64,000 nt of DNA from Alphaproteobacteria bacterium. GTDB taxonomy: Bacteria; Pseudomonadota; Alphaproteobacteria; GCA-2746255. Every line of letters begins with the position of its first letter. Position 1 is the stretch's first letter. The stretch is taken from the NCBI GenBank assembly GCA_965249135.1, contig OZ252220.1:352001-416000 (forward strand). Reading direction: 5' to 3'. Both the position numbers and the translations under genes were made by a program. Below the pieces are notes generated by a model. It worked only from the letters and a program-made list of their open reading frames with translations. It was not told the DNA's origin and made no database searches. Shown here in pieces: positions 33,049 to 52,755 of this stretch.

Positions 33049-33837
33049 TTAAAACCAAAGCCTAAAACCCGTGACGAAGGAAATGCTTTGGACGTCTCCG
33101 CCTTTGTTGCGTGCGAAGTCGGCAGTGTCGCCGACCTTGTGGCTCCAGGCCACGCCCACATAAGGCGCGAACTCGCGCTCGATCTCGTAGCGCAGACGCA
33201 AGCCCGCTTCCGCCGTGCCGAGCCCCGAGCCGACGCCGATTTCCTCGACATCCTGAACCGCAAAGTTAAGCTCGGCGCGCGGTTGCAGGATCAGCCGCTG
33301 GGTGAGCAGCAACGCGTACTCGGCTTCGATGCGGGCAGAAACGTCGCCGTCTTCGCTGGCGAAGAGGGCGGCATCGACCTCGAACCAATAAGGCGCAAGG
33401 CCCTGGATACCAACAACGCCGTAGGTCTTTGACGGGCGGGGTTTGACGTCGTGCCGAACGCCAGCCTGAAAATCGAAATAAGGCGCGATGGCGCGGCTGT
33501 AGAGCACTTGGACCTCCGCCTCCTCGAAGGCGTCGTCGTCAAAGAGGTATTCGCCTTCGGTCTTCATCCAGACCTTATGGATGTCGCCGCCCACCCAGCC
33601 TTGTGCGTCCCAAAGCAGGCGCGGCGCGCCCTCGTTCGACTGGTATTCGAAGCGGTCGGCTTGCAGAAACAGCAACGTTCCGCCGCCGCTTCCCGCCTGA
33701 AGTTTGCGTTTCGCTGCCGCCATTTTTTCCGGGTCGTAATATTCCGCAGCCGCGTTCCACGTCCCGTCCTGCGCCAAAAGAGGGGCGTTAGCGGTTGCTG
33801 CCGCAACGATGCAAGCCGCGATTGCCAGACTTCGCAT
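33049..33837 (-). CDS. copB: Copper resistance outer-membrane protein CopB
   Basis: GIQGLAPYWFE, LRLRYEIEREFAPYVG and terminal RLWF. Confidence 0.93.
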   Translation of the reverse strand: MRSLAIAACIVAAATANAPLLAQDGTWNAAAEYYDPEKMAAAKRKLQAGSGGGTLLFLQADRFEYQSNEGAPRLLWDAQGWVGGDIHKVWMKTEGEYLFDDDAFEEAEVQVLYSRAIAPYFDFQAGVRHDVKPRPSKTYGVVGIQGLAPYWFEVDAALFASEDGDVSARIEAEYALLLTQRLILQPRAELNFAVQDVEEIGVGSGLGTAEAGLRLRYEIEREFAPYVGVAWSHKVGDTADFARNKGGDVQSISFVTGFRLWF

Positions 33838-35615
33838 TACCGAACCTCCGGCATCCGGTGACGCGTATGGTCCTCGCGATGCTCAGTTGGACGTATCGCG
33901 CCCGCCCGGGTCGCGCTCGCCCGGGCTGCATGTGGCCGGACGGAGACCACCTGCATCATGCCGGCGTGCATGTGGTAGAGCAGGTGACAGTGGAAGGCCC
34001 AGTCCCCAGGCGCGTTCGCGGTGATGTCGACGGATAGTTTTTCCCCCGGCTTGACGATCACCGTGTGCTTGCGCGGCTTGTGGCCCTTGCTACCGTTCAC
34101 CAGCTCGAAGAACATGCCGTGAAGGTGGATTGGATGCGGCATCATGGTGTCGTTCACCATGGTGAGCCGCACCCGTTCGCCCTCGTGAAAAAGGATGGGG
34201 TCGACGACCTCGGAAAACTTCACGCCGTCGAACGACCACATATAGCGCTCCATGTTGCCGGTGAGATGGACCTCCACCTCGCGACTCGGCAGGCGGGTGT
34301 CCGGATTTGGATCGAGACTTCTGAGCTTGGCGTAGCTGAGCGTCCGGTGCGGAACGTCTTCGAGCCCGATCCCCGGTTCGTCCAGGCGACTCGCAGGCGC
34401 CATCGCCACATTGGTGACGCCTGGACCCATCGGATGATCGTGTTCCGTCATGGCGTGGTCGCCATGCCCCGCCATGCCCATGCCCCCCGCCATGCCCATG
34501 TCCTTCATGGTGAGCAGCGGGCGGGGCCGGAGCGGCGGCACCTTTGCCGTCATGCCCGGCCGCGGCGCCAGCGTCGCGCGGCCATAGCCCGACCGGTCGA
34601 TCGACTCGGCCATGAAGGTGAAGGCGCGCTCCGCCGTAGGCTGAACGATGATGTCATAGGTCTCCGCCACGCCCATCTGGAATTCGTCGGTTTCAAGGGG
34701 GCGCAGGTTGAGCCCGTCGGCCTGCACCACCGTCATCGGCAGGCCGGGAACGCGGACGTTGAAGATTGTCGTCGCCGAAGCGTTGATGATGCGCAGGCGT
34801 ACACGTTCGCCTGGATTGAAAAGTGCGGTCCAATTGTCCTCGGGCCCGTGGCCGTTGACCAGATAGGTATAAGTAGCCCCGGTCACATCCGCGATGTCGG
34901 TCGGCGACATGCCCATGCGCCCCCACAGGAGCCGGTCGTCCAGAGCGCTCGCCAGCCCATTCGTGCGTGCGTCTGCGAGGAAGTCGGTGAAGGCGCGTTT
35001 CTGGTAATTGAGACTCTCGCCGTTTTTCTTGAGTACGGCGAACAGGCGATGCGGGTCCATGAAGGTCCAGTCGGACAGCACGATGACGTATTCACGGTCG
35101 TACGCCACCGGATCGTTGCCGGCGGGATCGATGATGAGGGGGCCGTAATGGCCGAGCTGTTCCTGCAGCCCGGAGTGGCTGTGATACCAGTAGGTGCCCG
35201 ATTGGCGGACCGGGAAACGGTAGGTGAACGTTTCGCCGGGCCCGATGCCTGGGAAGGTGATGCCCGGCACCCCGTCCATCTGGAATGGCAGCAGGATGCC
35301 GTGCCAGTGGATCGACGTGTCCTCGTCAAGGCCATTCGTGACGCGCAGGGCGATCTCGTCGCCCTCGCGCCAGCGCAAGAGCGGGGCCGGAACCGTACCG
35401 TTGATGGTAACCGCGTTGCCGGGCCGGCCATCGATGGAAACGGGCGTCTGGCCAATTTTGAGATCAAAGGCCGTTCCGGACAGGGCGTTGATGCCGGATA
35501 GGGCGTTCGTCGTTGCACCGCGCGCCCATGCCGGGAGAAGGGCTTGATAAGCGATCAATCCGCCAACCGAGGCCGCCGTCCTCAAAAATTTTCGCCGTGT
35601 AAACATTCTTCCCAC
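33837..35615 (-). CDS. copA: Copper resistance multicopper oxidase CopA (PcoA type)
   Basis: Tat motif TRRKFL; HWH, WYHSH, HPIHLHG and HCHLLYHM copper motifs. Confidence 0.95.
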   Translation of the reverse strand: MGRMFTRRKFLRTAASVGGLIAYQALLPAWARGATTNALSGINALSGTAFDLKIGQTPVSIDGRPGNAVTINGTVPAPLLRWREGDEIALRVTNGLDEDTSIHWHGILLPFQMDGVPGITFPGIGPGETFTYRFPVRQSGTYWYHSHSGLQEQLGHYGPLIIDPAGNDPVAYDREYVIVLSDWTFMDPHRLFAVLKKNGESLNYQKRAFTDFLADARTNGLASALDDRLLWGRMGMSPTDIADVTGATYTYLVNGHGPEDNWTALFNPGERVRLRIINASATTIFNVRVPGLPMTVVQADGLNLRPLETDEFQMGVAETYDIIVQPTAERAFTFMAESIDRSGYGRATLAPRPGMTAKVPPLRPRPLLTMKDMGMAGGMGMAGHGDHAMTEHDHPMGPGVTNVAMAPASRLDEPGIGLEDVPHRTLSYAKLRSLDPNPDTRLPSREVEVHLTGNMERYMWSFDGVKFSEVVDPILFHEGERVRLTMVNDTMMPHPIHLHGMFFELVNGSKGHKPRKHTVIVKPGEKLSVDITANAPGDWAFHCHLLYHMHAGMMQVVSVRPHAARASATRAGAIRPTEHREDHTRHRMPEVR

Positions 35616-36237: not shown

Positions 36238-37437
36238 ATGGTCGATTTCTCCCTTTCTCCGGAAATCCGCGACTTGCAGGTGCGCATCCGCGCCTTCGTC
36301 GCCGAACGCATTCTTCCCTTGGAGGCGGATCCGGCTTCCTTTGATGCCTACGAAAACATCGCCCCCGACCTTCTCGAAAAATTGCGTGGCGAGGCGAAAA
36401 GCCAGGGTCTCTGGGCGCTTCAGATGCCCAAGGAACGTGGCGGCCAGGGCTTGAACATGGCAGGCCTGGCGGTTGCCTATGAGGAGATGGGCCATTCCAT
36501 CTTCGGGCCCGTCGTCTTCAATGCGGCGGCGCCCGATGACGGCAACATGCTGCTGCTGAACCGCATCGGAACCGAGGCGCAGAAGGATCGCTGGCTGCAG
36601 CCGATCATCGATGGCGAGCTGCGCTCTGCCTTCGCGATGACGGAGCCGAACCCCGGCGCCGGCTCCGATCCGGGTGCGATGCGCACCGTCGCTACGAAAG
36701 AAGGCAAGAACTGGATCGTCAAGGGCGAGAAGTGGTTCACGACCGGGGCCGGAGTGGCGAAGCATTTCGTTCTCGTGGTCCGCACGTCGGACGATGAAAG
36801 ACGAGGCTTGAGCGCCTTTCTCTTCCATGGCGACCAGCCGGGCTGGGAGATCACGCGCCGCATTCCGATCATGGGACCGGAGGAGCATGGCGGGCATTGT
36901 GAGCTTCGCTTCGACGGCCTGGAAATCCCCGATGAGGCGCGACTCTTAGGAGTCGGCGACGGGCTCAAGGTCACCCAGATCCGTTTGGGCACGGCACGGC
37001 TCACCCATTGCATGCGCTGGCTCGGCATGGCGAAGCGGGCGCTGGAGATCGCCAGCCACTATGTCCGTTCGCGCGAGAGTTTCGGGATGAGGCTCTCCGA
37101 ACACGAAGGCGTCCAGTGGATGCTGGGGGAGGCGGCAAAGGAAATCGCGGTAGGCCGGCTGCTCACCCTGCACGCGGCCTGGAAACTGGATCAGGGGGAT
37201 TTCGCCCGCAAGGAGGTGGCGATGGCGAAGATCCAGGTCGCCGATACGCTGCACAAGGCGGTGGACACGGCGCTTCAGCTTTGCGGGGCGAAGGGCTACT
37301 CGAAGGACATGCCCCTTGAATGGATGTACCGCTATGCCCGTCAGGCGCGCCTCGTCGACGGTGCGTCCGAGGTCCACAAGATGGTGCTGGCCCGATTCCT
37401 GATTCAGGAAGGGAGGGAGTTCTGGTCGTGGGAGTGA
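36238..37437 (+). CDS. Acyl-CoA dehydrogenase, LvaC/ACAD11-like
   Basis: APDDGNM, FAMTEP, KWFTTGA, RLTHCMRWLG and DGASEVH. Confidence 0.85.
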   Translation: MVDFSLSPEIRDLQVRIRAFVAERILPLEADPASFDAYENIAPDLLEKLRGEAKSQGLWALQMPKERGGQGLNMAGLAVAYEEMGHSIFGPVVFNAAAPDDGNMLLLNRIGTEAQKDRWLQPIIDGELRSAFAMTEPNPGAGSDPGAMRTVATKEGKNWIVKGEKWFTTGAGVAKHFVLVVRTSDDERRGLSAFLFHGDQPGWEITRRIPIMGPEEHGGHCELRFDGLEIPDEARLLGVGDGLKVTQIRLGTARLTHCMRWLGMAKRALEIASHYVRSRESFGMRLSEHEGVQWMLGEAAKEIAVGRLLTLHAAWKLDQGDFARKEVAMAKIQVADTLHKAVDTALQLCGAKGYSKDMPLEWMYRYARQARLVDGASEVHKMVLARFLIQEGREFWSWE

Positions 37438-38459
37438 CGGAGCCCGCCTCCCAAACACGCCTTGAAACCTTCCTTGCCGATGCCTGTCAGGCGAATTCCG
37501 CGACGATTTTGGGGCTTCAACCCCTAACCGGCGGCGCCGTTCAGGAGAACTGGCGTCTCGACGTCACCCTTAAAGGCGGCGCTTATGAAGGCGCGCAGGC
37601 CTGGGTGCTCCGTATCACGGCACCCGCCATGATCCCGGACAGCCATTCGCGCACGCAAGAATTCGCGATCCTGAAGGTGATGGAGGCGGAAAGAATCGCA
37701 GCACCCAAGGCCCATTTCCTCTGTCGCGACGTGCACGTTCTGGGGCGCGAATTCTTCATCATGGAACGCCTGCCCGGGGTCGCCGCCGGCCACCGGCTGG
37801 TCCGGGACGCGAGTTTAGACGGCGAGGCGCTTACCGAGCGATTGGCCCAGGAACTCGGCCGCATCCATGCCATCCGGCCACCGCGCGAGGATCTGGCGTT
37901 CCTGAACCTGCCGGAGCCGACGCCGGCGCTTGAAATAGTCGCGCGCTTTCGTCGCCAAGTTGAGGCGGAAGCGGACCCGCACCCGGTTCTCGACTGGGCC
38001 CTTCGCTGGATGGCGCTGAATGCGCCGCGGCACCAGGCCCTCGTGCTCTGCCACCGGGATTTCCGCACCGGCAATTACCTGGTCGAGGCGGGCGCGTTCA
38101 CCGGTCTTCTGGACTGGGAATTCGCGAATTGGGGGGATCCGATGGAGGACGTGGGCTGGTTCTGCGCCAAGTGCTGGCGTTTCGGGGCAGTAACGCGCGA
38201 GGCGGGCGGCATCGGCCCGCGGGCGCTTTTCTACCGCGCCTATGAGGAAAGCTCCGGCTTATCCATTGATCCCGGCGCCGTCCATTTTTGGGAGGTGACG
38301 GCGCATCTCCGATGGGCGGTCATCGCCCTTCAGCAATGCGCACGCCACTTGAGCGGGACGCTGCCCTCGCTCGAGCTTGCACTCACCGGCCGACTTGCGG
38401 CAGAGATGGAGCTTGAGATTCTTGCGCTGATCGATCGATCCGACAAAGGGAGGCTCTAA
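37434..38459 (+). CDS. APH-family phosphotransferase, LvaA-like
   Basis: GGAVQENW, HRDFRTGNY, LDWEF and GDPMEDVGW; GTGA overlap with the upstream gene. Confidence 0.85.
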   Translation: MTEPASQTRLETFLADACQANSATILGLQPLTGGAVQENWRLDVTLKGGAYEGAQAWVLRITAPAMIPDSHSRTQEFAILKVMEAERIAAPKAHFLCRDVHVLGREFFIMERLPGVAAGHRLVRDASLDGEALTERLAQELGRIHAIRPPREDLAFLNLPEPTPALEIVARFRRQVEAEADPHPVLDWALRWMALNAPRHQALVLCHRDFRTGNYLVEAGAFTGLLDWEFANWGDPMEDVGWFCAKCWRFGAVTREAGGIGPRALFYRAYEESSGLSIDPGAVHFWEVTAHLRWAVIALQQCARHLSGTLPSLELALTGRLAAEMELEILALIDRSDKGRL

Positions 38460-38870
38460 ATGCAGGATCGCCCCACCTCGGCCCAGCTTCTGGAAGCAGC
38501 CTGTGAGGCCTTTACCCGTGGGTTGTTGCCGCAAGCTTCGGGGGAGAAGCGCTATCTGGCGCTGATGGTCGCGAACGCGATGGGGATCGTAAGCCGCGAC
38601 CTTCGGACTTCGACCCAGTCATTGAAGCAAGAACGCGAGCGTCTTCAAGAGCTTTTCTCGCTTTCCTCATCCGAAATTGCAAACTCAGACGCGCTGCAGA
38701 GCGAGGTCGAGGCGCTGAACCGACGCTTGGCCGCCGAGATCGGCGCCGGTGCCTTTGATGCACCTGTCGAGGCCCGTGAACGGGTCAAGGCCCATCTTCT
38801 CGAGACCACCCGCGAGAAGCTCCGCGCCAGCAACCCGAAGCACTTAGAGGCGGAAAGGAAAGGCGAATGA
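38460..38870 (+). CDS. DUF6285 protein, LvaB-like
   Basis: MQDRPTSAQLL, Y.ALMVANAMGI..R and KL..SNPK. Confidence 0.8.
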   Translation: MQDRPTSAQLLEAACEAFTRGLLPQASGEKRYLALMVANAMGIVSRDLRTSTQSLKQERERLQELFSLSSSEIANSDALQSEVEALNRRLAAEIGAGAFDAPVEARERVKAHLLETTREKLRASNPKHLEAERKGE

Positions 38871-39184
38871 CAGTTTACCGCCCTCTGTATGGTGTCGGCG
38901 AGCTCGTCCACCATCGGCTTTTCGATTACCGGGGCGTCATCGTCGACGTCGATCCGGTCTTTCAAAACTCGGACGAATGGTACGAGGCGGTGGCCCGCTC
39001 CCGGCCGCCGAAGGACAAGCCCTGGTACCACGTCCTGGTGGACGGCGCCTTCCATCGGACCTATGTGGCCGAGCGGAATCTCGAGCCCGATGAAATGGGC
39101 GACCCGATCATGCACCCGGAGATCGGCGTTTTCTTCTCAGGCTTCGAGAAGGGGGCCTATGTGACGAACCAGCCGAAGAATTGA
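38867..39184 (+). CDS. hspQ: Heat shock protein HspQ
   Basis: HRLFDYRGVIVDVDP, PWYHVLV and YVAERNL. Confidence 0.9.
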   Translation: MTVYRPLYGVGELVHHRLFDYRGVIVDVDPVFQNSDEWYEAVARSRPPKDKPWYHVLVDGAFHRTYVAERNLEPDEMGDPIMHPEIGVFFSGFEKGAYVTNQPKN

Positions 39185-39187
39185 CGG

Positions 39188-39661
39188 CTATTTGATCTCA
39201 AAGACGTGGTAGGCGACCCCGTTCGGAATGCGCCGTCCAATCGCGATGGCCAGCACGCGGTTCAGCCAGTCGTACTTCTTGGAAGCGGTCTCGAAGCGCA
39301 TGGAACTTCGGAAATAAAGCGTCGAAGGGTCGATCTCCACGTCTTCCCAGAACCGCATGAATTTCTCCATCGTCTCCGGCGTGCCGTGGATGTAGCCATG
39401 GTAGAAGAGGTAGATGAGTTCGCCATCGTCCGTCTTGAGCTGGGTACGGACGTCGATGACCAGCGTCCCATCGTCAAGGATGCGCAGCCAATCCGCGCCT
39501 GGAGCCAGAACCTCCCCCTTCATCTTCGGGCCTTCGAATTCGCCGCCGATGACCTCGACGATCAGGCGGTGGCCGTTTTCCACCGTCTTGCCGACGTCGT
39601 GGACGGCGCCGCCCACGTAAAGCTTGATGTCGAACAGCAGCTCGCCTTGTAGCTCGGGCAA
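39188..39661 (-). CDS. DUF3237 family protein
   Basis: GGEFEGP, GADW, LKTDDG, YFR...FET and YDWLNR; TTG start with AGGAGAGG RBS. Confidence 0.85.
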   Translation of the reverse strand: MPELQGELLFDIKLYVGGAVHDVGKTVENGHRLIVEVIGGEFEGPKMKGEVLAPGADWLRILDDGTLVIDVRTQLKTDDGELIYLFYHGYIHGTPETMEKFMRFWEDVEIDPSTLYFRSSMRFETASKKYDWLNRVLAIAIGRRIPNGVAYHVFEIK

Positions 39662-39676
39662 TTGTGCTTTCCTCTC

Positions 39677-41377
39677 CTAGAAGACCGGCGTTTCGCGATA
39701 GGTCCCCCAAAGCTCCCTTAGGGCCTCGACGATGTCGCCCATGGAGGCGCCTGCCTTCACCAGCTCGACGGTGAGCGGCATCACGTTCTTCGTTTCGTCC
39801 TTCGCCACCTCGACGAGTTCCTTCAACAATTGCTGAACCTTCGCTTCGTCGCGGTCTTTTCGCACCTGGTTCAGCCGCCCGACCTGGCGTTCCGTGATGG
39901 TCTCGTCGTGGGCGTGGAGTTCCACGTCCAGCTTTTCGTCTTCTTCCGTGAACCGGTTGACGCCGATCAGCGGGTATTCGCCGCTCGCCTTCTTCGTCGC
40001 CGTCTCGTAGGCAAAATCGGCGATCTGGCGCTGGAACCAGCCTTCCTCGATCAGCTTCACCGTGCCGCCATGGGCATCGACCTCGTCGAGGATGCGGAAG
40101 GTTTCCTTCTCGAAGTAGGTCGTCAGGTTCTCGACGTAGTAGGACCCGCCCAATGGGTCGGCGACTTGGCTCACGTTCGATTCCTCGGCGATGACCTGCT
40201 GGGTGCGAAGCGCCAGCTTCATCGCCTCTTCCGTCGGAATGGCGAAGGCTTCGTCCATGCCGTTCACGTGCAGGCTTTGGGCGCCGCCCAGAACCGCAGA
40301 CAAGGCCTGTAGGGTCGTCCGCACGGTGTTGACGCGATATTGCGGCTTGGTCAGTGTCGCGGCGGCCGTTCCGCAGTGGAAACGTAGCCGCATCGATTCC
40401 GGGGATCGAGCCCCGAAGCGCTCCTTCATGATCTTCGCGTAGATGCGGCGTGCCGCCCGGAACTTGGCGATCTCCTCGAAGAAGTCCCGTTGGCAGACGA
40501 AGAAGAAGGAGAGGCGGGGCGCGAAGTCGTCGACGTCGATGCCGGCCTTCGTCACCTCGTCCACATAGGTGATCGTGTTCGCCATGGTGAAGGCGAGCTC
40601 CTGCAGCGGCGAGGAGCCGGCCTCCGAGATGTGATAGCCGGAGATGTTGATCGGGTTGAAGCGCTGCATGTGCTCGGCGCAGAACGTGATGCAATCGCGC
40701 ACGATGCGCACGGAGGGCCGGATCGGGTAGATCCATTCCTTTTGCGCCATGTACTCCTTCAGGATGTCGGCCTGGATGGTGCCGGCAAGCCGATGGGGGT
40801 CGAAGCCGCGCTTCTCGCCAAGGGCGTAGTACATGGCGAGCAGGATCCAGGCCGAAGGATTGATCGTCATGGAGACGGAGATGTTTTCCAGATCGATGTC
40901 GGCGTAGAGCGCTTCCATGTCGGCCAAGGTGTCGACGGCGACGCCTTCGCGGCCGACCTCGCCGGTGCTCATCGGGTGGTCCGAGTCGTAGCCCATCAGC
41001 GTCGGCATATCGAAATCCGTCGAGATGCCGGTCTGGCCCTGCGCAATCAGGTATTTGAAACGCCGGTTTGTGTCTTCACCCGTGCCGAAGCCGGCGATCT
41101 GGCGCATCGTCCAGGTGCGGCCGCGATACATGGTCGGGTAGGGGCCGCGGGTGAAAGGATATTGCCCGGGAAGCCCGATGTCCTCGATCGGGGTATCCTG
41201 CAGGTCGAGCGCCGTATAGACCCGCTTCACCGGAATGTCACCGAAGGTGGAAAAATCCTCCTTCTGTTCCGGCTGGCGTTTCAGGAAATGGGCGAGCTCT
41301 TCCTTCTCCCACTTCTCGAGCTGCTGCTCGAGCTGTTCGCGCGCCATGTTGTCCAGGGCCTGCTTCTCGTTGATCAT
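39677..41377 (-). CDS. hcmA: 2-hydroxyisobutyryl-CoA mutase large subunit, variant copy (Gly336)
   Basis: RQIAGFG (Ile94) and STDFDMPT (Asp121) Hcm signature; RFHCGT and SLHVNG in place of canonical RFHCQT and SLHTNG. Confidence 0.85.
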   Translation of the reverse strand: MINEKQALDNMAREQLEQQLEKWEKEELAHFLKRQPEQKEDFSTFGDIPVKRVYTALDLQDTPIEDIGLPGQYPFTRGPYPTMYRGRTWTMRQIAGFGTGEDTNRRFKYLIAQGQTGISTDFDMPTLMGYDSDHPMSTGEVGREGVAVDTLADMEALYADIDLENISVSMTINPSAWILLAMYYALGEKRGFDPHRLAGTIQADILKEYMAQKEWIYPIRPSVRIVRDCITFCAEHMQRFNPINISGYHISEAGSSPLQELAFTMANTITYVDEVTKAGIDVDDFAPRLSFFFVCQRDFFEEIAKFRAARRIYAKIMKERFGARSPESMRLRFHCGTAAATLTKPQYRVNTVRTTLQALSAVLGGAQSLHVNGMDEAFAIPTEEAMKLALRTQQVIAEESNVSQVADPLGGSYYVENLTTYFEKETFRILDEVDAHGGTVKLIEEGWFQRQIADFAYETATKKASGEYPLIGVNRFTEEDEKLDVELHAHDETITERQVGRLNQVRKDRDEAKVQQLLKELVEVAKDETKNVMPLTVELVKAGASMGDIVEALRELWGTYRETPVF

Positions 41378-41396
41378 CGCCTATCCTTTAAGCCGC

Positions 41397-43097
41397 CTAG
41401 AAGACCGGCGTTTCGCGATAGGTCCCCCAAAGCTCCCTTAGGGCCTCGACGATGTCGCCCATGGAGGCGCCTGCCTTCACCAGCTCGACGGTGAGCGGCA
41501 TCACGTTCTTCGTTTCGTCCTTCGCCACCTCGACGAGTTCCTTCAACAATTGCTGAACCTTCGCTTCGTCGCGGTCTTTTCGCACCTGGTTCAGCCGCCC
41601 GACCTGGCGTTCCGTGATGGTCTCGTCGTGGGCGTGGAGTTCCACGTCCAGCTTTTCGTCTTCTTCCGTGAACCGGTTGACGCCGATCAGCGGGTATTCG
41701 CCGCTCGCCTTCTTCGTCGCCGTCTCGTAGGCAAAATCGGCGATCTGGCGCTGGAACCAGCCTTCCTCGATCAGCTTCACCGTGCCGCCATGGGCATCGA
41801 CCTCGTCGAGGATGCGGAAGGTTTCCTTCTCGAAGTAGGTCGTCAGGTTCTCGACGTAGTAGGACCCGCCCAATGGGTCGGCGACTTGGCTCACGTTCGA
41901 TTCCTCGGCGATGACCTGCTGGGTGCGAAGCGCCAGCTTCATCGCCTCTTCCGTCGGAATGGCGAAGGCTTCGTCCATGCCGTTCGTGTGCAGGCTTTGG
42001 GCGCCGCCCAGAACCGCAGACAAGGCCTGCAAGGCCGTCCGGATGATGTTCACTTGATACTGCGGCTTGGTGAGCGTGGCTGCCGCCGTTTGACAGTGGA
42101 AACGTAGCCGCATCGATTCCGGGGATCGAGCCCCGAAGCGCTCCTTCATGATCTTCGCGTAGATGCGGCGTGCCGCCCGGAACTTGGCGATCTCCTCGAA
42201 GAAGTCCCGTTGGCAGACGAAGAAGAAGGAGAGGCGGGGCGCGAAGTCGTCGACGTCGATGCCGGCCTTCGTCACCTCGTCCACATAGGTGATCGTGTTC
42301 GCCATGGTGAAGGCGAGCTCCTGCAGCGGCGAGGAGCCGGCCTCCGAGATGTGATAGCCGGAGATGTTGATCGGGTTGAAGCGCTGCATGTGCTCGGCGC
42401 AGAACGTGATGCAATCGCGCACGATGCGCACGGAGGGCCGGATCGGGTAGATCCATTCCTTTTGCGCCATGTACTCCTTCAGGATGTCGGCCTGGATGGT
42501 GCCGGCAAGCCGATGGGGGTCGAAGCCGCGCTTCTCGCCAAGGGCGTAGTACATGGCGAGCAGGATCCAGGCCGAAGGATTGATCGTCATGGAGACGGAG
42601 ATGTTTTCCAGATCGATGTCGGCGTAGAGCGCTTCCATGTCGGCCAAGGTGTCGACGGCGACGCCTTCGCGGCCGACCTCGCCGGTGCTCATCGGGTGGT
42701 CCGAGTCGTAGCCCATCAGCGTCGGCATATCGAAATCCGTCGAGATGCCGGTCTGGCCCTGCGCAATCAGGTATTTGAAACGCCGGTTTGTGTCTTCACC
42801 CGTGCCGAAGCCGGCGATCTGGCGCATCGTCCAGGTGCGGCCGCGATACATGGTCGGGTAGGGGCCGCGGGTGAAAGGATATTGCCCGGGAAGCCCGATG
42901 TCCTCGATCGGGGTATCCTGCAGGTCGAGCGCCGTATAGACCCGCTTCACCGGAATGTCACCGAAGGTGGAAAAATCCTCCTTCTGTTCCGGCTGGCGTT
43001 TCAGGAAATGGGCGAGCTCTTCCTTCTCCCACTTCTCGAGCTGCTGCTCGAGCTGTTCGCGCGCCATGTTGTCCAGGGCCTGCTTCTCGTTGATCAT
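41397..43097 (-). CDS. hcmA: 2-hydroxyisobutyryl-CoA mutase large subunit, canonical copy
   Basis: Ile94/Asp121 signature; canonical RFHCQT and SLHTNGMDE; no B12-binding domain. Confidence 0.9.
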   Translation of the reverse strand: MINEKQALDNMAREQLEQQLEKWEKEELAHFLKRQPEQKEDFSTFGDIPVKRVYTALDLQDTPIEDIGLPGQYPFTRGPYPTMYRGRTWTMRQIAGFGTGEDTNRRFKYLIAQGQTGISTDFDMPTLMGYDSDHPMSTGEVGREGVAVDTLADMEALYADIDLENISVSMTINPSAWILLAMYYALGEKRGFDPHRLAGTIQADILKEYMAQKEWIYPIRPSVRIVRDCITFCAEHMQRFNPINISGYHISEAGSSPLQELAFTMANTITYVDEVTKAGIDVDDFAPRLSFFFVCQRDFFEEIAKFRAARRIYAKIMKERFGARSPESMRLRFHCQTAAATLTKPQYQVNIIRTALQALSAVLGGAQSLHTNGMDEAFAIPTEEAMKLALRTQQVIAEESNVSQVADPLGGSYYVENLTTYFEKETFRILDEVDAHGGTVKLIEEGWFQRQIADFAYETATKKASGEYPLIGVNRFTEEDEKLDVELHAHDETITERQVGRLNQVRKDRDEAKVQQLLKELVEVAKDETKNVMPLTVELVKAGASMGDIVEALRELWGTYRETPVF

Positions 43098-43100
43098 CGC

Positions 43101-44069
43101 CTATCCTTCCAACCGCATCTCGGCGAGCAGATCCACCGCCGCCGTGTATGGGTTCTTTTCATGGGCCATCATCTGGCCGATCAGTGCCGAGACTTTCCCG
43201 TCCCGGTGTTTCTTGAATTCGTCGCGCAAGATTTCTTCGGCCGTCTTCAACATCCGCCGTTCGGCGATTTGCTTTTTCCGTTCGGCGATTTCGCCGGAGG
43301 ATTCGAGGGCTTGCCGATGACGGTCGACCGCATCGACAAGCCCATCGATCCCCTCGGCCTTGAGCGCGCTCGTCGCGATCACCGGGACCTCCCAGCCGGA
43401 AGCCCCCGCAAGCGTTAATCCCAACGTCATCATAGCCTTTAAGTCGACGATCGTCCGGTTCGCATCCGGCCGGTCGCACTTGCTGACGACATGGATGTCC
43501 GCAATTTCAAGGATGCCCGCCTTGATCGCCTGGATGTCGTCGCCAAGACCGGGGGCGGAGATGACGACCGTCGTGTGCGCCGCCTGCACGATGTCCACCT
43601 CGTCCTGGCCGACGCCCACCGTCTCGATCAGGACCAAATCGAAACCGGCGGCATCCAGCACATCGACCGCATCCAGCGTGGATCGCGCCAGACCACCGAG
43701 CATGCCCCGCGTCGCCATGCTGCGGATGAAGATCCCCTTATCCCCCGAAAGCTCGTTCATCCGGATGCGATCGCCGAGGATGGCGCCGCCGGAGTAGGGG
43801 CTCGAGGGATCGATGGCGACGACGGCGATCTTGCGGTCGGACTTACGGACGGCGGCCATCAATTTTCCCATCAGTGTCGACTTGCCGCTTCCGGGAACGC
43901 CGGTGATGCCGACGATGTGCGCTCTTCCCGTGTGCCGATAGATATCGGCCATGGCCGGCCGGCACTCCTCGAGGCCCGACTCCGCGCGGGTGATCATCCG
44001 CGCGATCGCGCCGATGTCGGCGGCGAGCACCCGCTCGACGAGCTCAATGGAGGGGACGGCGTTGTTCAT
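43101..44069 (-). CDS. meaH: MeaB-family G-protein chaperone of the mutase
   Basis: GVPGSGKST, DPSSPYSGGAILGDRIRM, ETVGVGQ and GDDIQAIKAG. Confidence 0.9.
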   Translation of the reverse strand: MNNAVPSIELVERVLAADIGAIARMITRAESGLEECRPAMADIYRHTGRAHIVGITGVPGSGKSTLMGKLMAAVRKSDRKIAVVAIDPSSPYSGGAILGDRIRMNELSGDKGIFIRSMATRGMLGGLARSTLDAVDVLDAAGFDLVLIETVGVGQDEVDIVQAAHTTVVISAPGLGDDIQAIKAGILEIADIHVVSKCDRPDANRTIVDLKAMMTLGLTLAGASGWEVPVIATSALKAEGIDGLVDAVDRHRQALESSGEIAERKKQIAERRMLKTAEEILRDEFKKHRDGKVSALIGQMMAHEKNPYTAAVDLLAEMRLEG

Positions 44070-44073
44070 GGCG

Positions 44074-45507
44074 TCACGATCCGGTCATCTTATCTTGCAT
44101 CTCCCGGAAGACATCGCGGTCGTCGATGACGCGACGCGCCTTGAAGTCCGTCCGGGGGATCGAGTTAAGGGGCACGATCTCGACCTTCGTGCGCACCCCC
44201 AACACGCGTTGCAGATTGTCGGCGACGGTGATCCGGAAGCCCGTTATTGCTTCTTCGCCACGCTCGTGGAGCTCGGACGTTGCTTCCACGCGGACCAGCA
44301 ATTCATCCATGGTGCCCTCGCGCGAGACGATGATGCGGTGTTCGCCGCCATAGCCGTCGGTCTTGTTGAGGACGGCATCGATTTCGCTCGGATAGATGTT
44401 TTCCCCGCGAATCGTGAACTGATCGTCGATACGGCCGAAGATGCCGTGCGGAAGGTGCGGATAGGTCCGCCCGCATGGGGCGGGCCCGTCGTAGCGCCAC
44501 TCCGTGAGATCGCCAGACAGCAGGCGGATCATCGGCTGCGAGGTGCGCTCCAAATGCGTATAGACGGGCGTGCCCTTCTCGCCATAGGGGACGCGCCGGA
44601 AATTCACCGGATCGCACACTTCGCTATAGACGATGTCCTGCCACATCAGCATGCCTTCCGGCGTCCCTTCCGAGCCGGCGCAGTTCATCCATGGCGACAT
44701 CTCGGCCATCGAGCCGGAGTCGTAGATTTGGGCGCCATAGATAGCCTTGATCTTGTCGCGAATCCCGGGGATCGACGCCCCCGGCTCGCCGGAGAAGAAC
44801 AGGCATTTCAGGCCGAAGCTCTTCGGGTCCAGCCCTTCCTTGCGGGCCACCTCGCCCAGGTGCAGCGCATAGGAGGGCGTTCCATAAAAAGCCGTCGGCT
44901 TCATCTGATCGAGCCACTGGGCGGCGCGCGCGCTCATGCCGGGGGCGCCGGCGCCGAACGGGAAGGCCTTCGCGTGCAGGCGTTCGGCGCCGATCATCGC
45001 GCCCCACGAACCGAGGTAGAGGCTGAAGATCGCGGCGATGAAGATCGTATTGCCGGGGCGCAGGCCCATCCCGTAGATGATTCGCGCGTGCGCATTGGCA
45101 ATCGAGTCCCAATCGCCGCGGCCGATGGCGAACACGGTGGGCGTACCGGTGGTGCCGGACGTGCCGTGGATGTGATGGATCTCCGATTCGGGGATGCAAA
45201 GGTAATCGCCGAATTTCGGTGCCCGGGTTTGGGCCTCGCGCAAATCCTGTTTCGTCACCACCGGCACCTTGTCCTCGAAATCTTCGAGGGACTTCAGGTG
45301 GTCCGGATGAAAGCCCGCGTCGTCCCACTTCCGCTTGTAGAAGGGGGACTTGTCATAGGCGTAACGGGTGATCTCCTTGAGGCGTTCGAGTATCGCCTTT
45401 TCCCGGTCGCCTGGATCCATCGTTTCGCGCTTCGGAAACCAGTAGGGGGAAGCCGGATCCGGCAGGTAATCGGGATTGAATTTCGGTGGAAATGACCAGT
45501 CTTCCAT
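44074..45507 (-). CDS. hcl: 2-hydroxyisobutyrate-CoA ligase (PaaK-like ANL family)
   Basis: HGTSGTTG, SGEPG and GSMAE motifs; N-terminus MEDWSFPP..YWFPKRETM recalls Aquincola Hcl; lies between hcmB and meaH. Confidence 0.82.
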   Translation of the reverse strand: MEDWSFPPKFNPDYLPDPASPYWFPKRETMDPGDREKAILERLKEITRYAYDKSPFYKRKWDDAGFHPDHLKSLEDFEDKVPVVTKQDLREAQTRAPKFGDYLCIPESEIHHIHGTSGTTGTPTVFAIGRGDWDSIANAHARIIYGMGLRPGNTIFIAAIFSLYLGSWGAMIGAERLHAKAFPFGAGAPGMSARAAQWLDQMKPTAFYGTPSYALHLGEVARKEGLDPKSFGLKCLFFSGEPGASIPGIRDKIKAIYGAQIYDSGSMAEMSPWMNCAGSEGTPEGMLMWQDIVYSEVCDPVNFRRVPYGEKGTPVYTHLERTSQPMIRLLSGDLTEWRYDGPAPCGRTYPHLPHGIFGRIDDQFTIRGENIYPSEIDAVLNKTDGYGGEHRIIVSREGTMDELLVRVEATSELHERGEEAITGFRITVADNLQRVLGVRTKVEIVPLNSIPRTDFKARRVIDDRDVFREMQDKMTGS

Positions 45508-45975: not shown

Positions 45976-46647
45976 TTAGGCTGCCTGGCCGCTTTGCTTG
46001 TGAAGTACGTGCTGCAGTTTTTCGCTCGCCGCCTCGACGTGTTTTTGCGCCAGCGCTTCCGCTTCTTCGGCGTCGCCTTCGGCGATGGCGTCGAGGATCG
46101 CGTCGTGCTCCATCCACACGCTCTCGCCATAGCCTTCGATGCGCAGCACCGCACTCATCACACGCCGAAGGTGATTCAAGTAAAGGCGCATCGTATCGGC
46201 GACGATCGTGTTGCCGGAAAGTTCGTAAATCAGACGGTGAAACTCCATGTCCGCGGCGATCAGCTTCGCAACGGAACCATTGGCAATCGCCTTCTGGCCT
46301 TGGGCTACGATGCGTTTGCCCCGGGTGACGTCCTGGGCCGTCGCGTGTCTGGCCGCCAAGCGCGCCGCCAAGCGGTCGAGCGCGCTTCGAAACTCATAGA
46401 GCGAACGCACGAAGCCCTCCTCGAGGGGAGAGACCATCAGCCCCCGGCGGCCGGACTTGCAGACGAAGCCCTGGCTCTTCAGCAGCATCAGCGCCTGGCC
46501 GACCGGCTGGCGGGAGACGTTGAGCTGTTCGGCGATGCTCTCTTGGGCGAGGCGCTCGCTTGGGGGGAGGCGGCCGTCGCAGATGGAATCGAGGATGGTC
46601 GTGTAGACCTGTTCCATCATACGGGGTTGGACGAGAAGCTTGCGCAC
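45976..46647 (-). CDS. GntR-family (FCD) transcriptional regulator
   Basis: N-terminal wHTH (LNVSRQPV), D..FH...SGN and EH..ILDAI..GD; GTG start with AGGAGG RBS. Confidence 0.9.
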   Translation of the reverse strand: MRKLLVQPRMMEQVYTTILDSICDGRLPPSERLAQESIAEQLNVSRQPVGQALMLLKSQGFVCKSGRRGLMVSPLEEGFVRSLYEFRSALDRLAARLAARHATAQDVTRGKRIVAQGQKAIANGSVAKLIAADMEFHRLIYELSGNTIVADTMRLYLNHLRRVMSAVLRIEGYGESVWMEHDAILDAIAEGDAEEAEALAQKHVEAASEKLQHVLHKQSGQAA

Positions 46648-46660
46648 GGAATCCCTCCTA

Positions 46661-46685
46661 TTTATTGGATACTGTATACAATAAA
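46661..46685. promoter_or_regulatory. GntR operator 1
   Basis: Near-perfect palindrome TTTATTGGATAC-T-GTATACAATAAA just upstream of the gntR RBS. Confidence 0.75.
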
Positions 46686-46746
46686 CCGGACACGGCGCCG
46701 CCGCAAGAGGCTCGAAAAACAAGCAAATCTTTCAAACCCTTAGTCC

Positions 46747-48486
46747 TCATTCGTCCTCATTTCCGGCCTGCCAGGTGCGCTCGGCGCGGTCCCAGGCTTC
46801 CAGCGGCTGGGTGTCCGGCACCCAGGCTAGGCCCGACTTCCCATCGCCCGAGACCGCCTCGCGGGTCACCAGGACGTCGAGCACGGCCGGCGCGTTTTCG
46901 AAACAGCGTTCGATCGCATCGCCTAAATCCTCGACCCGCTCGACGCGTTCGCCATGGGCGCCAAGGGCGCGGGCCAGTGCGGCGTAATCCGAGTGGCGAA
47001 GTTCCGTGCCGACGAGGTTGCCGTCATAGGTGACGCGCTGGTCGTAGCATTCGATGTTCCAGGCGCCGTTATTGGCGACGACGAAGACCACCTTGGCACC
47101 GTGGCGGACGGCGGTGTCGACCTCGATCGCGTTGAATCCGAAGGAGCCATCCCCGGTTACGACGACGACCTGGCGGTCGGGCAGGGCAAGGGCGGCGGCG
47201 ATTCCAAACGGGACACCGACGCCGAGGCAACCCAAGGAGCCAGAGTCCATATAGGGGCCGGCCGACAGCGCCACGCGGGCGAAACTTAAGATGTCGCCGC
47301 CATCGGCAATGGTCACCGCATCCGGGGCGAGCTTCTCCTGCAAGATGCCGAGCAGGCGGTTCGGGTGCATGTGGCCGTCGCTTCCCGGTGCTGCCGTGGC
47401 GAGGAGGCGCGTGAATTTCTTCCGTTTCTTGCTGTGTTTCTCCCGCACGCCCTTCAGCCAGGCCCGGTCGACGGCGGGCTTTCGGTTGCCGGCCTCTTCC
47501 ACGATGGCGGTCAGCGCCAGCGCCGGTGTGGCCAGGATTTCAGCAAGCCCGCGCCGGTTGTCGCGAAGCTCGGATACGTATTCGGCCAGCCGTACGAAAC
47601 GCGCCTTCTTGAAGATGGCGGGCGATCCGTAGGCCAACTGGAAGTCGAGCCGTCGCCCGACGGTGAGCACGACGTCGGCTTCTGCCATCACCTGGCCGCG
47701 CAGCGAGGAAACCACCGCCGGGTGCGCATCGGGAACCAGACTGCGGCTTTCGGAGGTGTCGAGATAGACGGCATCCAGCGCATCGAGCAGGGCTAGAAGC
47801 TCAGGTCCCGCCTCCCTGGCACCGCGCCCGGAAACGACCAGCGGCCGCTTGGCGTTCCACAGCATCTCGACGGCGCGGCCCACGGCGTCGGCGTCCGGCA
47901 ACCGCTCGGGCTTCGGCTTTGCCTTTCGATGCTCCTCGAAGGCCAAATGGCCGGGCAAGTGTTCGCGCAGGAGATCGGTCGGAAAGTCGAGATAGACCGG
48001 GCCCGGCACGCAGCCGTCGCCGATCGCCCGGGCGAACGCCTCGTCGAGCGCCGGCAGCACGTGGGCCGCCTCCCGCACGGTCCGCGCATAGCGGGTGACG
48101 GAACGCAGCAGGTCCGTGTGCACCAGATCCTGGAGCGCGCCCATCCGTTCCTGGGGGCGGGGCGGCACGCCGGAGATGACGACGATCGGCGCCCGGGCCA
48201 CGTGGGCGTTGACGATGCCGGTCATCGCGTTCGTCACCCCGGGACCGGCCGTCGCCAAAACGACCCCGATGCCGCCGGTAAGTTCGGCATGGGCATGGGC
48301 CATATGGGCGGCGGCGCGCTCGTCACGGACATCCACGATACGGATCCCGCCCCGTGCGGCTTGGTCCCAGATCGGCATGACGTGACCGCCACACAGCCCG
48401 AAGATGCGGTCGATCCCACGCACGGCGAGGAATTCGGCGATCCGGCCGGCCACCGTCTCCGAGGCGGCGACGTCAGAGGCTCCCAT
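46747..48486 (-). CDS. ThDP-dependent 2-hydroxyacyl-CoA lyase-like enzyme
   Basis: GLCGGH, VRDE, GDGSFG...NNGAWNIE and C-terminal GLAWVPDTQPL, recalling actinobacterial 2-hydroxyisobutyryl-CoA lyase. Confidence 0.78.
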   Translation of the reverse strand: MGASDVAASETVAGRIAEFLAVRGIDRIFGLCGGHVMPIWDQAARGGIRIVDVRDERAAAHMAHAHAELTGGIGVVLATAGPGVTNAMTGIVNAHVARAPIVVISGVPPRPQERMGALQDLVHTDLLRSVTRYARTVREAAHVLPALDEAFARAIGDGCVPGPVYLDFPTDLLREHLPGHLAFEEHRKAKPKPERLPDADAVGRAVEMLWNAKRPLVVSGRGAREAGPELLALLDALDAVYLDTSESRSLVPDAHPAVVSSLRGQVMAEADVVLTVGRRLDFQLAYGSPAIFKKARFVRLAEYVSELRDNRRGLAEILATPALALTAIVEEAGNRKPAVDRAWLKGVREKHSKKRKKFTRLLATAAPGSDGHMHPNRLLGILQEKLAPDAVTIADGGDILSFARVALSAGPYMDSGSLGCLGVGVPFGIAAALALPDRQVVVVTGDGSFGFNAIEVDTAVRHGAKVVFVVANNGAWNIECYDQRVTYDGNLVGTELRHSDYAALARALGAHGERVERVEDLGDAIERCFENAPAVLDVLVTREAVSGDGKSGLAWVPDTQPLEAWDRAERTWQAGNEDE

Positions 48487-48551
48487 GCGGCGTTCTCCCA
48501 AGGGCAAATCGCATTAACTATTTGAATTATATATATTATATATTAGTTTAT

Positions 48552-50740: not shown

Positions 50741-52755
50741 TTTTCAAGGCGACAGGTTTATGGGCAAGTCGCTGACTCGAAATGTCCGTGAGGTGCAAAG
50801 CTAACATTCGCCGCTTGGCCTCGAAGGTCTGCTTTTAGGCAGGAGGGGATGTTTGATGGGTTACGGAAACCGGAATTATATTGGATCGTTGACCGAGCAG
50901 GCCACTCCTCCGCACCCTAAGACTAGGTACGTCCGGCGGATCGAGGAACGGTGAGTAGTGATGCACATAAGCCATGTAGAAATCAGCAATTTTCGGTCGC
51001 TGCAGTCGGTGTCGGTGCCGTTAAATACGTTCAGTGTTTTGCTTGGTGAGAACGATGTGGGGAAAACTTCATTCCTTCATGCTCTCGACAAGTTCTTCCT
51101 TGGTAAGAAGCTCGTTGATCCCAACGATTGGTTCAAGAAGGACACGGGCAACGAAATCCGCATTGTGCTCACTTTTCAGGAAGCTCCCCACGACAGGCTA
51201 AAAGATTTTTGTCGCAGCGATGGGTCAATCGTAGTGAGCAAAGTGTTTCCGTTCGGCGAAAGCCCCCAAATCAAGGCAATTCTCGACGACAATTCCGCTA
51301 TGAGCATCCCAGGGCCGATACTGAGCAAGTGGTTCTCATCGGAGCGATTTCACTTCATTCCTGTCCGTCGTGACCTTGCAGTCCAGCTCTCAATGACCAA
51401 GACCGCTCTTCTCGGAAAAATGCTACGGGCTCGAATGAAGGAAAAACTTACAGATGGGGGCACCAAGACATCTCTTGAAGAACTGGAACACCTCCTTATG
51501 GATTCAATCTCCGAGCCGAGAACAATGCTTGAGAACTTTCTGCGACAGCAGATGCACGATAATGCTGTCCGACTCGGATTTGACGATCTCGAAATCGATC
51601 CGGTGGAGGGGGTCAAGTTCGTTGTGAACTTGTCTGATGATCGCGTAGATAACGTGAAAATTGAAAATCGGGGTGCGGGAACACAGAATAACTTGATCAT
51701 CGCTCTTTTCCGGTTGGTCGCTGACCTTGCTGCCGAGGGCTACCTAATCTTGGCGATGGAGGAACCCGAAAATAGTCTTCATCCGAAGGCACAACGTCAG
51801 CTCTTGTCGGTAATCCAAGAGATTAGCGTCAAATCGCAGGTTATCGTCACCACCCATTCACCTGTATTCATCGATCGGAGCCGTTTCGAGAACAATGTCC
51901 TAATGACACGTACTGCCAGCGGGAACACCGTTGCTAAGACGTTCGATGTTTCGTTACTCGATGAGGTCCGAACCGATCTCGGAATACGGGCGTCAGACGC
52001 GCTCCTTAAGGGCGGTGGAAACTGCGCGATATTAGTTGAAGGTAGTACAGAGGAGGATGGATTTCCAACCTTCATGGAGATGTGTGGAATGAGTGAATTC
52101 CACTTGGGTATCGCAATCATCAATATGAACGGCAGCGACTCTAAAAGAGCCGAAACAATCGCCCGATTACTCTACGCATATGATATCCCCTGCATCATTG
52201 TTTTTGATCGAAATGCAGAAAACGCGGCTAAGGATTTAGAGCGCGCAGCAGCAGCCTCGCTCCCAAACATTAAAAAAGTGTTCTGCCTGAGGAAGGGCAA
52301 CATCGAAGATTACTTTCCCCTTGAAATTATTGCGGATGTCATCAATCGCGAATTAAGTCCGACAAAGGAAGTTACCGTAACTGATTTCGATTCGAGCAAG
52401 TCGGGACAAGACCGTCTCAATGATTTCAAGAAGGTTATGTACGAACACGGAGCTGGCGGATCCACCAGGTACTTGAAAAGACTCCTCGGTGGTCTCGGGG
52501 CCAGGTTGATAAAGGAACGAGCTATACCCCTCGATCCTGAACTTGTTGAAATATTCAACACTGTTAAGGCAATTGCCGATCCGGATTAGGTTCGGAACAC
52601 CGGCTAGGAAGGGGCGGGCGCATGATCATCCCCGTCGGTCCATTGGAGGGCACCCAGGAGTTGCTCGTCATCGAGAAGGATCTTGAGGGCGTCTTGCGCA
52701 AACGAAGCGTGCTGACGGTTCGTTTCTCTCCCCTGCAGGGCGGAGGCCGGATCTA
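50596..52755. mobile_element. Integrase-less islet bounded by a 144-bp direct repeat (50596-50739 and 52612-52755)
   Basis: 143/144 identical copies of the pcm 3' end flank a visibly AT-richer gene. Confidence 0.8.
50958..52589 (+). CDS. OLD-family ATP-dependent nuclease (ABC ATPase plus TOPRIM)
   Basis: NFRS, GENDVGKTS, GAGTQ, MEEPENSLHP, TTHSP, ILVEGSTE and IEDYF. Confidence 0.88.
   Translation: MMHISHVEISNFRSLQSVSVPLNTFSVLLGENDVGKTSFLHALDKFFLGKKLVDPNDWFKKDTGNEIRIVLTFQEAPHDRLKDFCRSDGSIVVSKVFPFGESPQIKAILDDNSAMSIPGPILSKWFSSERFHFIPVRRDLAVQLSMTKTALLGKMLRARMKEKLTDGGTKTSLEELEHLLMDSISEPRTMLENFLRQQMHDNAVRLGFDDLEIDPVEGVKFVVNLSDDRVDNVKIENRGAGTQNNLIIALFRLVADLAAEGYLILAMEEPENSLHPKAQRQLLSVIQEISVKSQVIVTTHSPVFIDRSRFENNVLMTRTASGNTVAKTFDVSLLDEVRTDLGIRASDALLKGGGNCAILVEGSTEEDGFPTFMEMCGMSEFHLGIAIINMNGSDSKRAETIARLLYAYDIPCIIVFDRNAENAAKDLERAAAASLPNIKKVFCLRKGNIEDYFPLEIIADVINRELSPTKEVTVTDFDSSKSGQDRLNDFKKVMYEHGAGGSTRYLKRLLGGLGARLIKERAIPLDPELVEIFNTVKAIADPD

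Follow-up and report, generated by a model that had tools for sequence, protein, structure and literature searches.

Tandem hcmA genes that differ only in a short active-site patch: a possible two-residue switch in a B12-dependent acyl-CoA mutase

The window analyzed here is a stretch of 64,000 nucleotides (nt) from an alphaproteobacterial genome (assembly GCA_965249135.1, contig OZ252220.1, positions 352,001 to 416,000), and it contains an operon of the kind that encodes 2-hydroxyisobutyryl-CoA mutase (HCM), a B12-dependent enzyme, with its large subunit HcmA and small B12-binding subunit HcmB. The order on the minus strand is 2-hydroxyacyl-CoA lyase, GntR regulator, hcmB, CoA ligase, meaH, hcmA copy 1, hcmA copy 2, and a DUF3237 gene (Table 1). 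The large subunit is thus encoded twice, by two open reading frames (ORFs) of 566 amino acids (aa) that lie head to tail. They occupy repeated segments of 1713 bp each (39676-41388 and 41396-43108, from a repeat search) with a period of 1720 bp; the 1713-bp repeat given in an initial annotation of this DNA is correct as the length of the segment and not as the period. A base-by-base comparison at the 1720-bp offset gave exactly 20 mismatches, every one of them in the 108-bp patch at 40266-40373, as that annotation had claimed, and a self-BLAST of the genome returned the repeat at 98.83% identity over 1713 bp. The probability that 20 differences would all fall inside some 108-nt interval of 1701 nt is about 2e-21. 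Ten of the changed bases are silent and lie in nine codons (335, 338-342, 346, 349, and 356), while the other ten make six replacement codons (Q336G, Q348R, I351T, I352V, A355T, and T371V), a division that the codon table likewise upheld. At residues 336 and 371, the upstream gene (copy 1) has Gln and Thr (Q/T) and the downstream gene (copy 2) has Gly and Val (G/V). The earlier count of differences holds for the genes but missed three more mismatches in the 19-nt spacer, at 41389, 41390, and 41392, relative to the sequence upstream of copy 1. Since the 20 changes are of all base types and not adenine-specific, a diversity-generating retroelement was rejected as their source.

The window lies within one contig of 2,118,282 bp. 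By self-BLAST, the same contig resolves five repeats of ~1.9 kb at 99.8 to 100% identity and one repeat of 2.5 kb, from which we conclude that the reads were longer than the 3.4-kb hcmA pair, and the pair is the only ~1.7-kb tandem in the contig. The junction between the copies has a sequence of its own, differing at 3 of 19 bases, and a mis-join is therefore an unlikely origin. The two hcmA genes are very probably a real, old paralog pair and not an assembly artefact. Among the other repeats of this genome (G000), at G000:C1:136242-139166 and elsewhere, are a direct tandem of ~1.4 kb (91.6% identity, 1535 bp apart) and a 1142-bp exact repeat 3231 bp apart; the five ~1.9-kb copies resemble insertion sequences.

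Both copies are barrels of the MM_CoA_mutase family (PF01642 over residues 44-558 of 566) without a fused B12 domain, and the best solved relative of both is the HcmA large subunit 4r3u_A (E values of 2.3e-296 for copy 1 and 2.6e-294 for copy 2). HCM-type residues are present in both, in the motifs RQIAGF (I94) and STDFD (D121); the Ile that replaces Tyr89 of methylmalonyl-CoA mutase (MCM), Ile90, is what we take to be the HCM signature. All of I94, D121, H334, N372, and E376 are intact in copy 2, the same as in copy 1. In A. tertiaricarbonis numbering, Asp117 is described as binding the substrate hydroxyl (PMC11599936). The split barrel with a separate 138-aa B12-binding gene, expected of HcmA, applies to both copies, as does an operon with hcmB, meaH, a candidate ligase, and GntR, which corresponds to clusters described in PMC7176365. 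Gln and Thr at the sites of MCM Q330 and T365 are found in copy 1 and not in copy 2, and copy 2, having G336 and V371, is therefore filed here as an HcmA-derived variant and not as a proven HcmA. The spacer has kept the AAGGA ribosome-binding motif found ahead of copy 1, along with the 11 nt that lead up to the ATG there, and no terminator-like site was found on the minus strand between the copies, so copy 2 is probably transcribed and translated like copy 1. The product of the single hcmB gene is presumably common to both large subunits.

Proteins with the same two residues were sought with residues 326-380 of copy 2 against 5.8 billion protein clusters, and the best 120 matches were examined. 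Residues 336 and 371 were Q/T in 118 of these 120 homologues and G/V in 2 (P0002 and P0003), and members of the clusters supplied two further G/V proteins (P0124 and P0277). Together with the window's own copy there are five G/V proteins on four hcmA backbones, with G336 and V371 present in all five. For three of the four backbones, a Q/T partner is on record, and outside residues 336-371 it matches the G/V protein completely. No residue differs outside this interval between the two copies of the window genome; P0002 equals P0043 outside the patch and has all six replacements, whereas P0003 differs from P0043, and P0124 from P0044, by Q336G and T371V only. The three backbones (G000, P0043, and P0044) differ from one another at 14-15 residues outside 336-371, and the backbone of P0277, which has the complete G patch with A340G in addition, differs by 35 residues from that of the window. 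At the DNA level, the difference outside the island is 0% within the pair, versus 13-22% to congeners. Genes that are identical within a genome and different between genomes indicate concerted evolution by gene conversion, and the survival of G336 and V371 on four backbones while their surroundings were erased indicates selection on these residues. In P0003 and P0124, the middle of the patch has been homogenized and both ends have not. We consider it highly probable that the pair is real, that it evolves in concert, and that G336 and V371 are under selection. The initial annotation had suggested gene conversion with a selected island and a database search for such mutases and their pairing; the search, with G/V in four other proteins and partners on record that are identical outside 336-371, supports the former.

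The patch itself carries a record of its age. Of the 111 bases of codons 335-371, 20 separate the Q patch from the G patch; from five congeners the Q patch is 16-25 bases away and the G patch 24-30. Derived silent changes relative to the five congeners are found on both copies, those of the Q patch at codons 340, 342, and 346. Synonymous divergence (dS) between the two patches is 0.48, and whole-gene dS to the congeners is 0.58-1.2; the ratio of nonsynonymous to synonymous divergence (dN/dS) in the patch is 0.25 for Q versus G and 0.02-0.06 for Q versus the congener orthologues. The patch dS, the silent changes on both copies, and the 3 of 19 mismatches in the spacer favor an old duplication that diverged in place rather than a recent import. 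Import of a foreign patch after duplication, which had been raised as a possibility in the initial annotation, is less likely, as the G patch is nearest to the Q patch of its own genome and the searches described next found no donor. A donor paralog in the same genome was ruled out, since identity to its three further mutase genes is 34-45% and these have Q at the site. The FHCGTAA pattern was found in one of six genomes of the genus, the window's own. A degenerate FHCGTAAA pattern gave 82 loci among 185,579 species representatives, none of them in a mutase, in a search from which the window's own record was possibly excluded, and a pattern for RFHCGTAAATLT gave no matches in JGI metagenome contigs. 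The pattern LHVNGxDEAFA had one match, L094, rejected because this high-GC mutase is unrelated; it has V but also keeps Q. This mutase (L094:3375-5579, on a JGI metagenome contig) reads RFHAQT and SLHVNG and has Leu at the Tyr89 site, and it is followed by a small B12-domain frame and then by genes resembling branched-chain 2-oxoacid dehydrogenase E1.

In an alignment to the MCM of P. shermanii (5req_A), H334 corresponds to H328, Q/G336 to Q330, T/V371 to T365, and N372 to N366. The F of the Y89F mutant is at chain index 88, and the residue number is therefore the index plus 1; the assignment of the two variable residues to Q330 and T365, already made in the initial annotation, is confirmed. 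Gln352 of human MCM, the equivalent of Q330, is in a barrel strand (PMC11988910). At the equivalent Thr, human p.T387I is disease-causing and of the mut- type, with intermediate activity and a near-wild-type melting temperature of the apo form; it is described as no longer stabilized by ligands and as destabilized by adenosylcobalamin (PMC4441004), behavior that places the Thr site near the cofactor. To compare the two sites across the superfamily, 150 representatives were aligned, of which 140 had both columns. At the site of residue 336, Gln was commonest (78/140) and Gly was next (14/140). Where this site was Gln, the second site was Thr in 63 of 78 and one of V/L/I/M/A in 12; where it was Gly, the second site was Thr in 4 of 14 and V/L/I/M/A in 8 (Fisher p 0.0006, which is overstated since the representatives are interrelated, so that the count is to be read as indicative). 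The alignment points to coupling of the two sites, with Gly plus a hydrophobic residue as an apparently recurrent natural solution, and such a recurrent state argues against a dead copy 2. A fused 679-aa paralog in the same genome (L004, 34% identical) reads RYGVQV where MCM reads RTHCQT. This agrees in part with a His-to-Gly change that the initial annotation gave for ethylmalonyl-CoA mutase (ECM): the paralog does have Gly at the H328 site, but its identity as ECM is unconfirmed, as no curated model names it so. A split large-subunit mutase from a genome of the same class (L011:1357-3168, genome G006), 46% identical, keeps the MCM-type Tyr and Arg but has RMIAGGGGFGLT in place of the RTHSQTSGWSLT of MCM and TMALCC in place of SLHTNS; His, Gln, Thr, and Asn are all lost. 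In proteins of this type the Q330 site is Gly and the T365 site is Leu, no curated family names them, and the motif is also present in 2 of the 150 representatives (P0152 and P0179).

We propose the following explanation. The duplication would be old, the silent divergence of the patch being about as large as that between species of the genus, and both genes would be cotranscribed in one operon. Frequent gene conversion would keep the genes identical save for an island bounded by codons 336 and 371, where selection would maintain Gly336 and Val371 in one gene (copy 2) and Gln336 and Thr371 in the other. The DNA between the two selected sites would be shielded from all but very short conversion tracts, and old silent differences could therefore survive in some strains and be erased in others. 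Copy 2 would be catalytically active as a mutase, working with the HcmB and MeaH that also serve copy 1. Loss of the Gln side chain and the Thr hydroxyl, on neighboring barrel strands beside the adenosyl and substrate cavity, would make a larger and more hydrophobic pocket, and the substrate range of copy 2 would be shifted, for example, to C5 2-hydroxy-2-methylacyl-CoAs. We assign a probability of roughly 45% to the full reading, that a natural two-residue switch (Gln to Gly and Thr to Val) makes a second enzyme with a new substrate range and that both genes are retained in tandem beside one shared B12 subunit and one chaperone. Taken by itself, the prediction from sequence that copy 2 is an active mutase with an altered substrate range stands at about even odds. 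For an enzyme of the lyase family, cleavage of 2-hydroxy-2-methylbutyryl-CoA, which yields butanone, is described as similar in rate to that of 2-hydroxyisobutyryl-CoA (PMC7176365), and in the sulfate reducer Desulfosarcina cetonica one thiamine diphosphate enzyme and one B12 mutase are assigned to acetone, butanone, and pentanones (PMC7888143). Since these enzymes handle larger homologues, C5 homologues are, by analogy, plausible substrates in this operon. The covariation of the two sites is likewise consistent with a Gly336 copy that would act on bulkier 2-hydroxy-2-methylacyl-CoAs, as the initial annotation had proposed.

Several points weigh against this reading. The structural role assigned to the Q330 and T365 sites is putative. 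In an HCM-type enzyme, every rationally designed first-shell mutant lacked activity (PMC11599936), and, by analogy with these and with the disease-causing p.T387I, catalysis by copy 2 may be impaired. Five congeneric genomes each have one Q/T copy and no G pattern, so that an old duplication requires losses, or else collapse of the pair in short-read bins; most of the five are fragmented bins where such a collapse could happen. Twenty-three public runs were available as Logan contigs, and no RNA run was among those listed. Exact pieces of run X1, the probable source, tile the stretch. The G patch has a depth of 3 and the Q patch one of 4.9-7.1, compared with 7.7-11.9 for the shared parts, and these values fit a tandem pair and also two coexisting strains; the same is true of ~9 units of unexplained depth in the bin at 41366-41427. 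The X1 contig pieces listed stop at 41388 and resume at 41396, and none of them bridges 41389-41395. A separate study supplied run X6, which shows both a Q-type and a G-like piece; over the G patch, a piece of 124 letters departs from the window at 10 of them. Strains a few percent diverged, in runs X5 and X7, have contigs that run straight from the 3' part through a Q-type patch into the 5' part, with no depth on 40250-40311. The hcmA copy number therefore seems to vary among close relatives, which fits an earlier suggestion that recombination could collapse the pair to one allele. No extra depth was seen at the junction bin in X5, X6, or X7. G/V and Q/T partners are recorded with the same longest contig in three cases (2,118,282, 652,446, and 566,716 bp), and colocation in the other assemblies is deduced from these matching longest contigs and not from DNA.

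It is possible, though we consider it rather unlikely, that copy 2 is dead or weak and that its role, within mixed alpha/alpha' assemblies that include HcmB, is structural or regulatory. Such a role would suit the conservation of Gln336 and Thr371, which are kept in the 118 of 120 nearest HCM homologues and in the MCM and IcmF paralogs of the genome, and the inactivity of the first-shell mutants (PMC11599936) points the same way. MCM itself has a known inactive subunit (PMC10481361), and the interface residues are all identical between the two copies here, so that mixed oligomers should form. However, an inert chain would not need exactly these two residues on four backbones, all other catalytic-site signatures are intact in copy 2, and Gly is paired with a hydrophobic residue in 8 of the 14 Gly-bearing mutase representatives.

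An unlikely explanation is that the two residues alter the handling of the cofactor (positioning of the adenosyl radical, tolerance of inactivation, or loading and repair by MeaH) and not the choice of substrate; both copies would then catalyze one reaction, with copy 2 as the isoenzyme that is more robust or under different regulation. The position of the Thr site near the cofactor, deduced from human p.T387I (PMC4441004), speaks for this. It is opposed by the His-to-Gly change on the same strand of the ECM-like paralog, a change related to substrate size if the unconfirmed ECM label is right, and by the covariation, which extends over families with very different active-site signatures.

It is very unlikely that the island is neutral, a functionless remnant of old divergence or of patch import that conversion has yet to reach. 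Half of the differences are silent, and three of the six replacements (348, 352, and 355) are at positions that also vary among orthologues, both of which would be expected of a leftover. However, conversion has erased the middle of the patch in two backbones and yet spared G336 and V371; both residues are kept on a backbone 35 residues away, neither occurs in the other 118 of the 120 nearest homologues, and none of the sampled congeners is closer to the G patch than its partner in the same genome is. The absence of any tandem, with G/V and Q/T as alleles of coexisting strains joined by the assembler, is highly improbable: it would account for X1 patch depths that sum to the depth of the shared parts, for the lack of a listed piece over the junction, and for Q type alone in X5 and X7, but not for a junction unlike the sequence upstream of copy 1, for both proteins being recorded with the same longest contig in three separate assemblies, or for identity outside the patch within a backbone against 14-15 differences between backbones, and it is at odds with an assembly that resolves longer repeats.

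The closest known system is HcmAB of Aquincola tertiaricarbonis L108 (4R3U). Both copies match 4r3u_A over residues 9-566 (987 and 980 bits), and the split subunits, the Ile/Asp signature, and an operon with hcmB, meaH, a ligase, and GntR are shared. It differs from the present system in that here two tandem large-subunit genes accompany a single hcmB, a 2-hydroxyacyl-CoA lyase is in the same cluster, and copy 2 has Gly/Val in place of the Gln/Thr of 4R3U. Two forms of 2-hydroxyisobutyryl-CoA mutase in one organism are also described for Bacillus massiliosenegalensis JC6, which has both HcmAB and RcmAB, with specificity thought to be for (S)- versus (R)-3-hydroxybutyryl-CoA (PMC7176365); those forms are distantly related and have their own small subunits, whereas the pair here consists of tandem paralogs that are 98.9% identical, have one common HcmB, and undergo gene conversion. 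The contrast between ECM and MCM is similar in that Gly replaces a polar residue on the barrel strand of H328 and Q330, where the specificity of these enzymes is set, but in ECM the Gly is two residues earlier and Gln330 is kept, and the ECM label of the paralog is unconfirmed. The inactive subunit of Propionibacterium MCM (4REQ) is a precedent for a second mutase-fold chain that pairs with an active one (PMC10481361), but it is highly diverged and has lost substrate and cofactor binding, whereas copy 2 differs at six residues only.

Gene conversion that homogenizes paralogs while a few functional sites resist it is familiar from tufA and tufB of enterobacteria and from the red and green opsin genes. 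To our knowledge, there is no case of a B12 enzyme in which the conversion-resistant sites are two pocket residues, and among the matches listed for 2-hydroxyisobutyryl-CoA mutase and hcmA/hcmB, titles and abstract openings contained no such report. HCM and gene conversion are each known; their combination, with two pocket residues of a B12 mutase pinned in place, appears to be new. B12-dependent acyl-CoA mutases are sought after as a means of rearranging carbon skeletons in synthetic pathways, and a reviewer of first-shell redesign work is quoted as seeing a "substantial knowledge gap" about these residues (PMC11599936). The pair is a natural isolation of the variable: backbone, partners, and operon are the same, and the patch alone differs, in two strains by two residues, whose retention goes back roughly as far as the divergence between species within the genus. 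It could show the role of the Q330 and T365 sites directly, as well as how bacteria with a lyase and a mutase treat C5 and C6 homologues such as those derived from butanone. If the two-residue switch is real, it would be an evolution-tested recipe for retuning B12 acyl-CoA mutases and a clean bacterial case in which selection beats gene conversion at single active-site residues.

Table 1. Features of the hcm operon and of the hcmA repeat within the window
Feature	Position	Strand	Basis or remark
2-Hydroxyacyl-CoA lyase (thiamine diphosphate enzyme), first gene of cluster	46747..48507	-	NF058623 equivalog; Pfam TPP_enzyme N, M, C
GntR/FCD family regulator	45976..46722	-	Pfam GntR, FCD
HcmB, small B12-binding subunit, 138 aa	45526..45942	-	Pfam B12-binding; TIGR00640 C-terminal domain, 155 bits
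PaaK-like acyl-CoA ligase, candidate 2-hydroxyisobutyrate-CoA ligase	44074..45507	-	Pfam AMP-binding_C_2
MeaB/MeaH-type G-protein chaperone	43101..44069	-	Pfam MeaB, 302 bits; TIGR00750, 325.8 bits (cutoff 240.75)
hcmA copy 1, canonical (Q336, Q348, I351, I352, A355, T371)	41397..43097	-	PF01642 residues 44-558; 4r3u_A
Q-type patch of copy 1, codons 335-371	41986..42093	-	Counterpart of 40266-40373 at 1720 bp
19-nt spacer and duplication junction between copies	41378..41396	-	AAGGA motif kept
hcmA copy 2, variant (G336, R348, T351, V352, T355, V371)	39677..41377	-	PF01642; 4r3u_A
G-type patch of copy 2, resists homogenization	40266..40373	-	Contains all 20 differences
DUF3237 gene, directly downstream	39188..39661	-	Pfam PF11578, E 6e-41

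Among the other genes of the operon, the lyase scores 851.9 bits against NCBIfam NF058623, for which the cutoff is 600. The PaaK model scores 252 bits against the ligase, which is under the cutoff, and the ligase is therefore a relative of PaaK and not PaaK itself; its position is the same as that of hcl in known clusters, which are also described as usually including a GntR regulator (PMC7176365). The DUF3237 gene, with GGAGAGG before a TTG start 15 nt past the stop of copy 2, is probably the last gene of the operon. A similar DUF3237 ORF follows hcmA in one congener (G003), and in three other congeners a hairpin terminator is found there instead.

Four genes on the plus strand at 36238-39184 converge on the hcm operon and encode an acyl-CoA dehydrogenase, an APH-family phosphotransferase, a DUF6285 protein, and a YccV-like protein. 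Beyond them, on the minus strand at 33049-35615, is a copper-resistance pair consisting of a CopA-type multicopper oxidase (TIGR01480, 820 bits) and CopB. On the other side of the operon, a 543-aa ORF at 50958-52589 on the plus strand has weak, below-cutoff matches to anti-phage AAA ATPases (MADS3, PtuA, and the retron Eco8 effector) and may be a defense gene.

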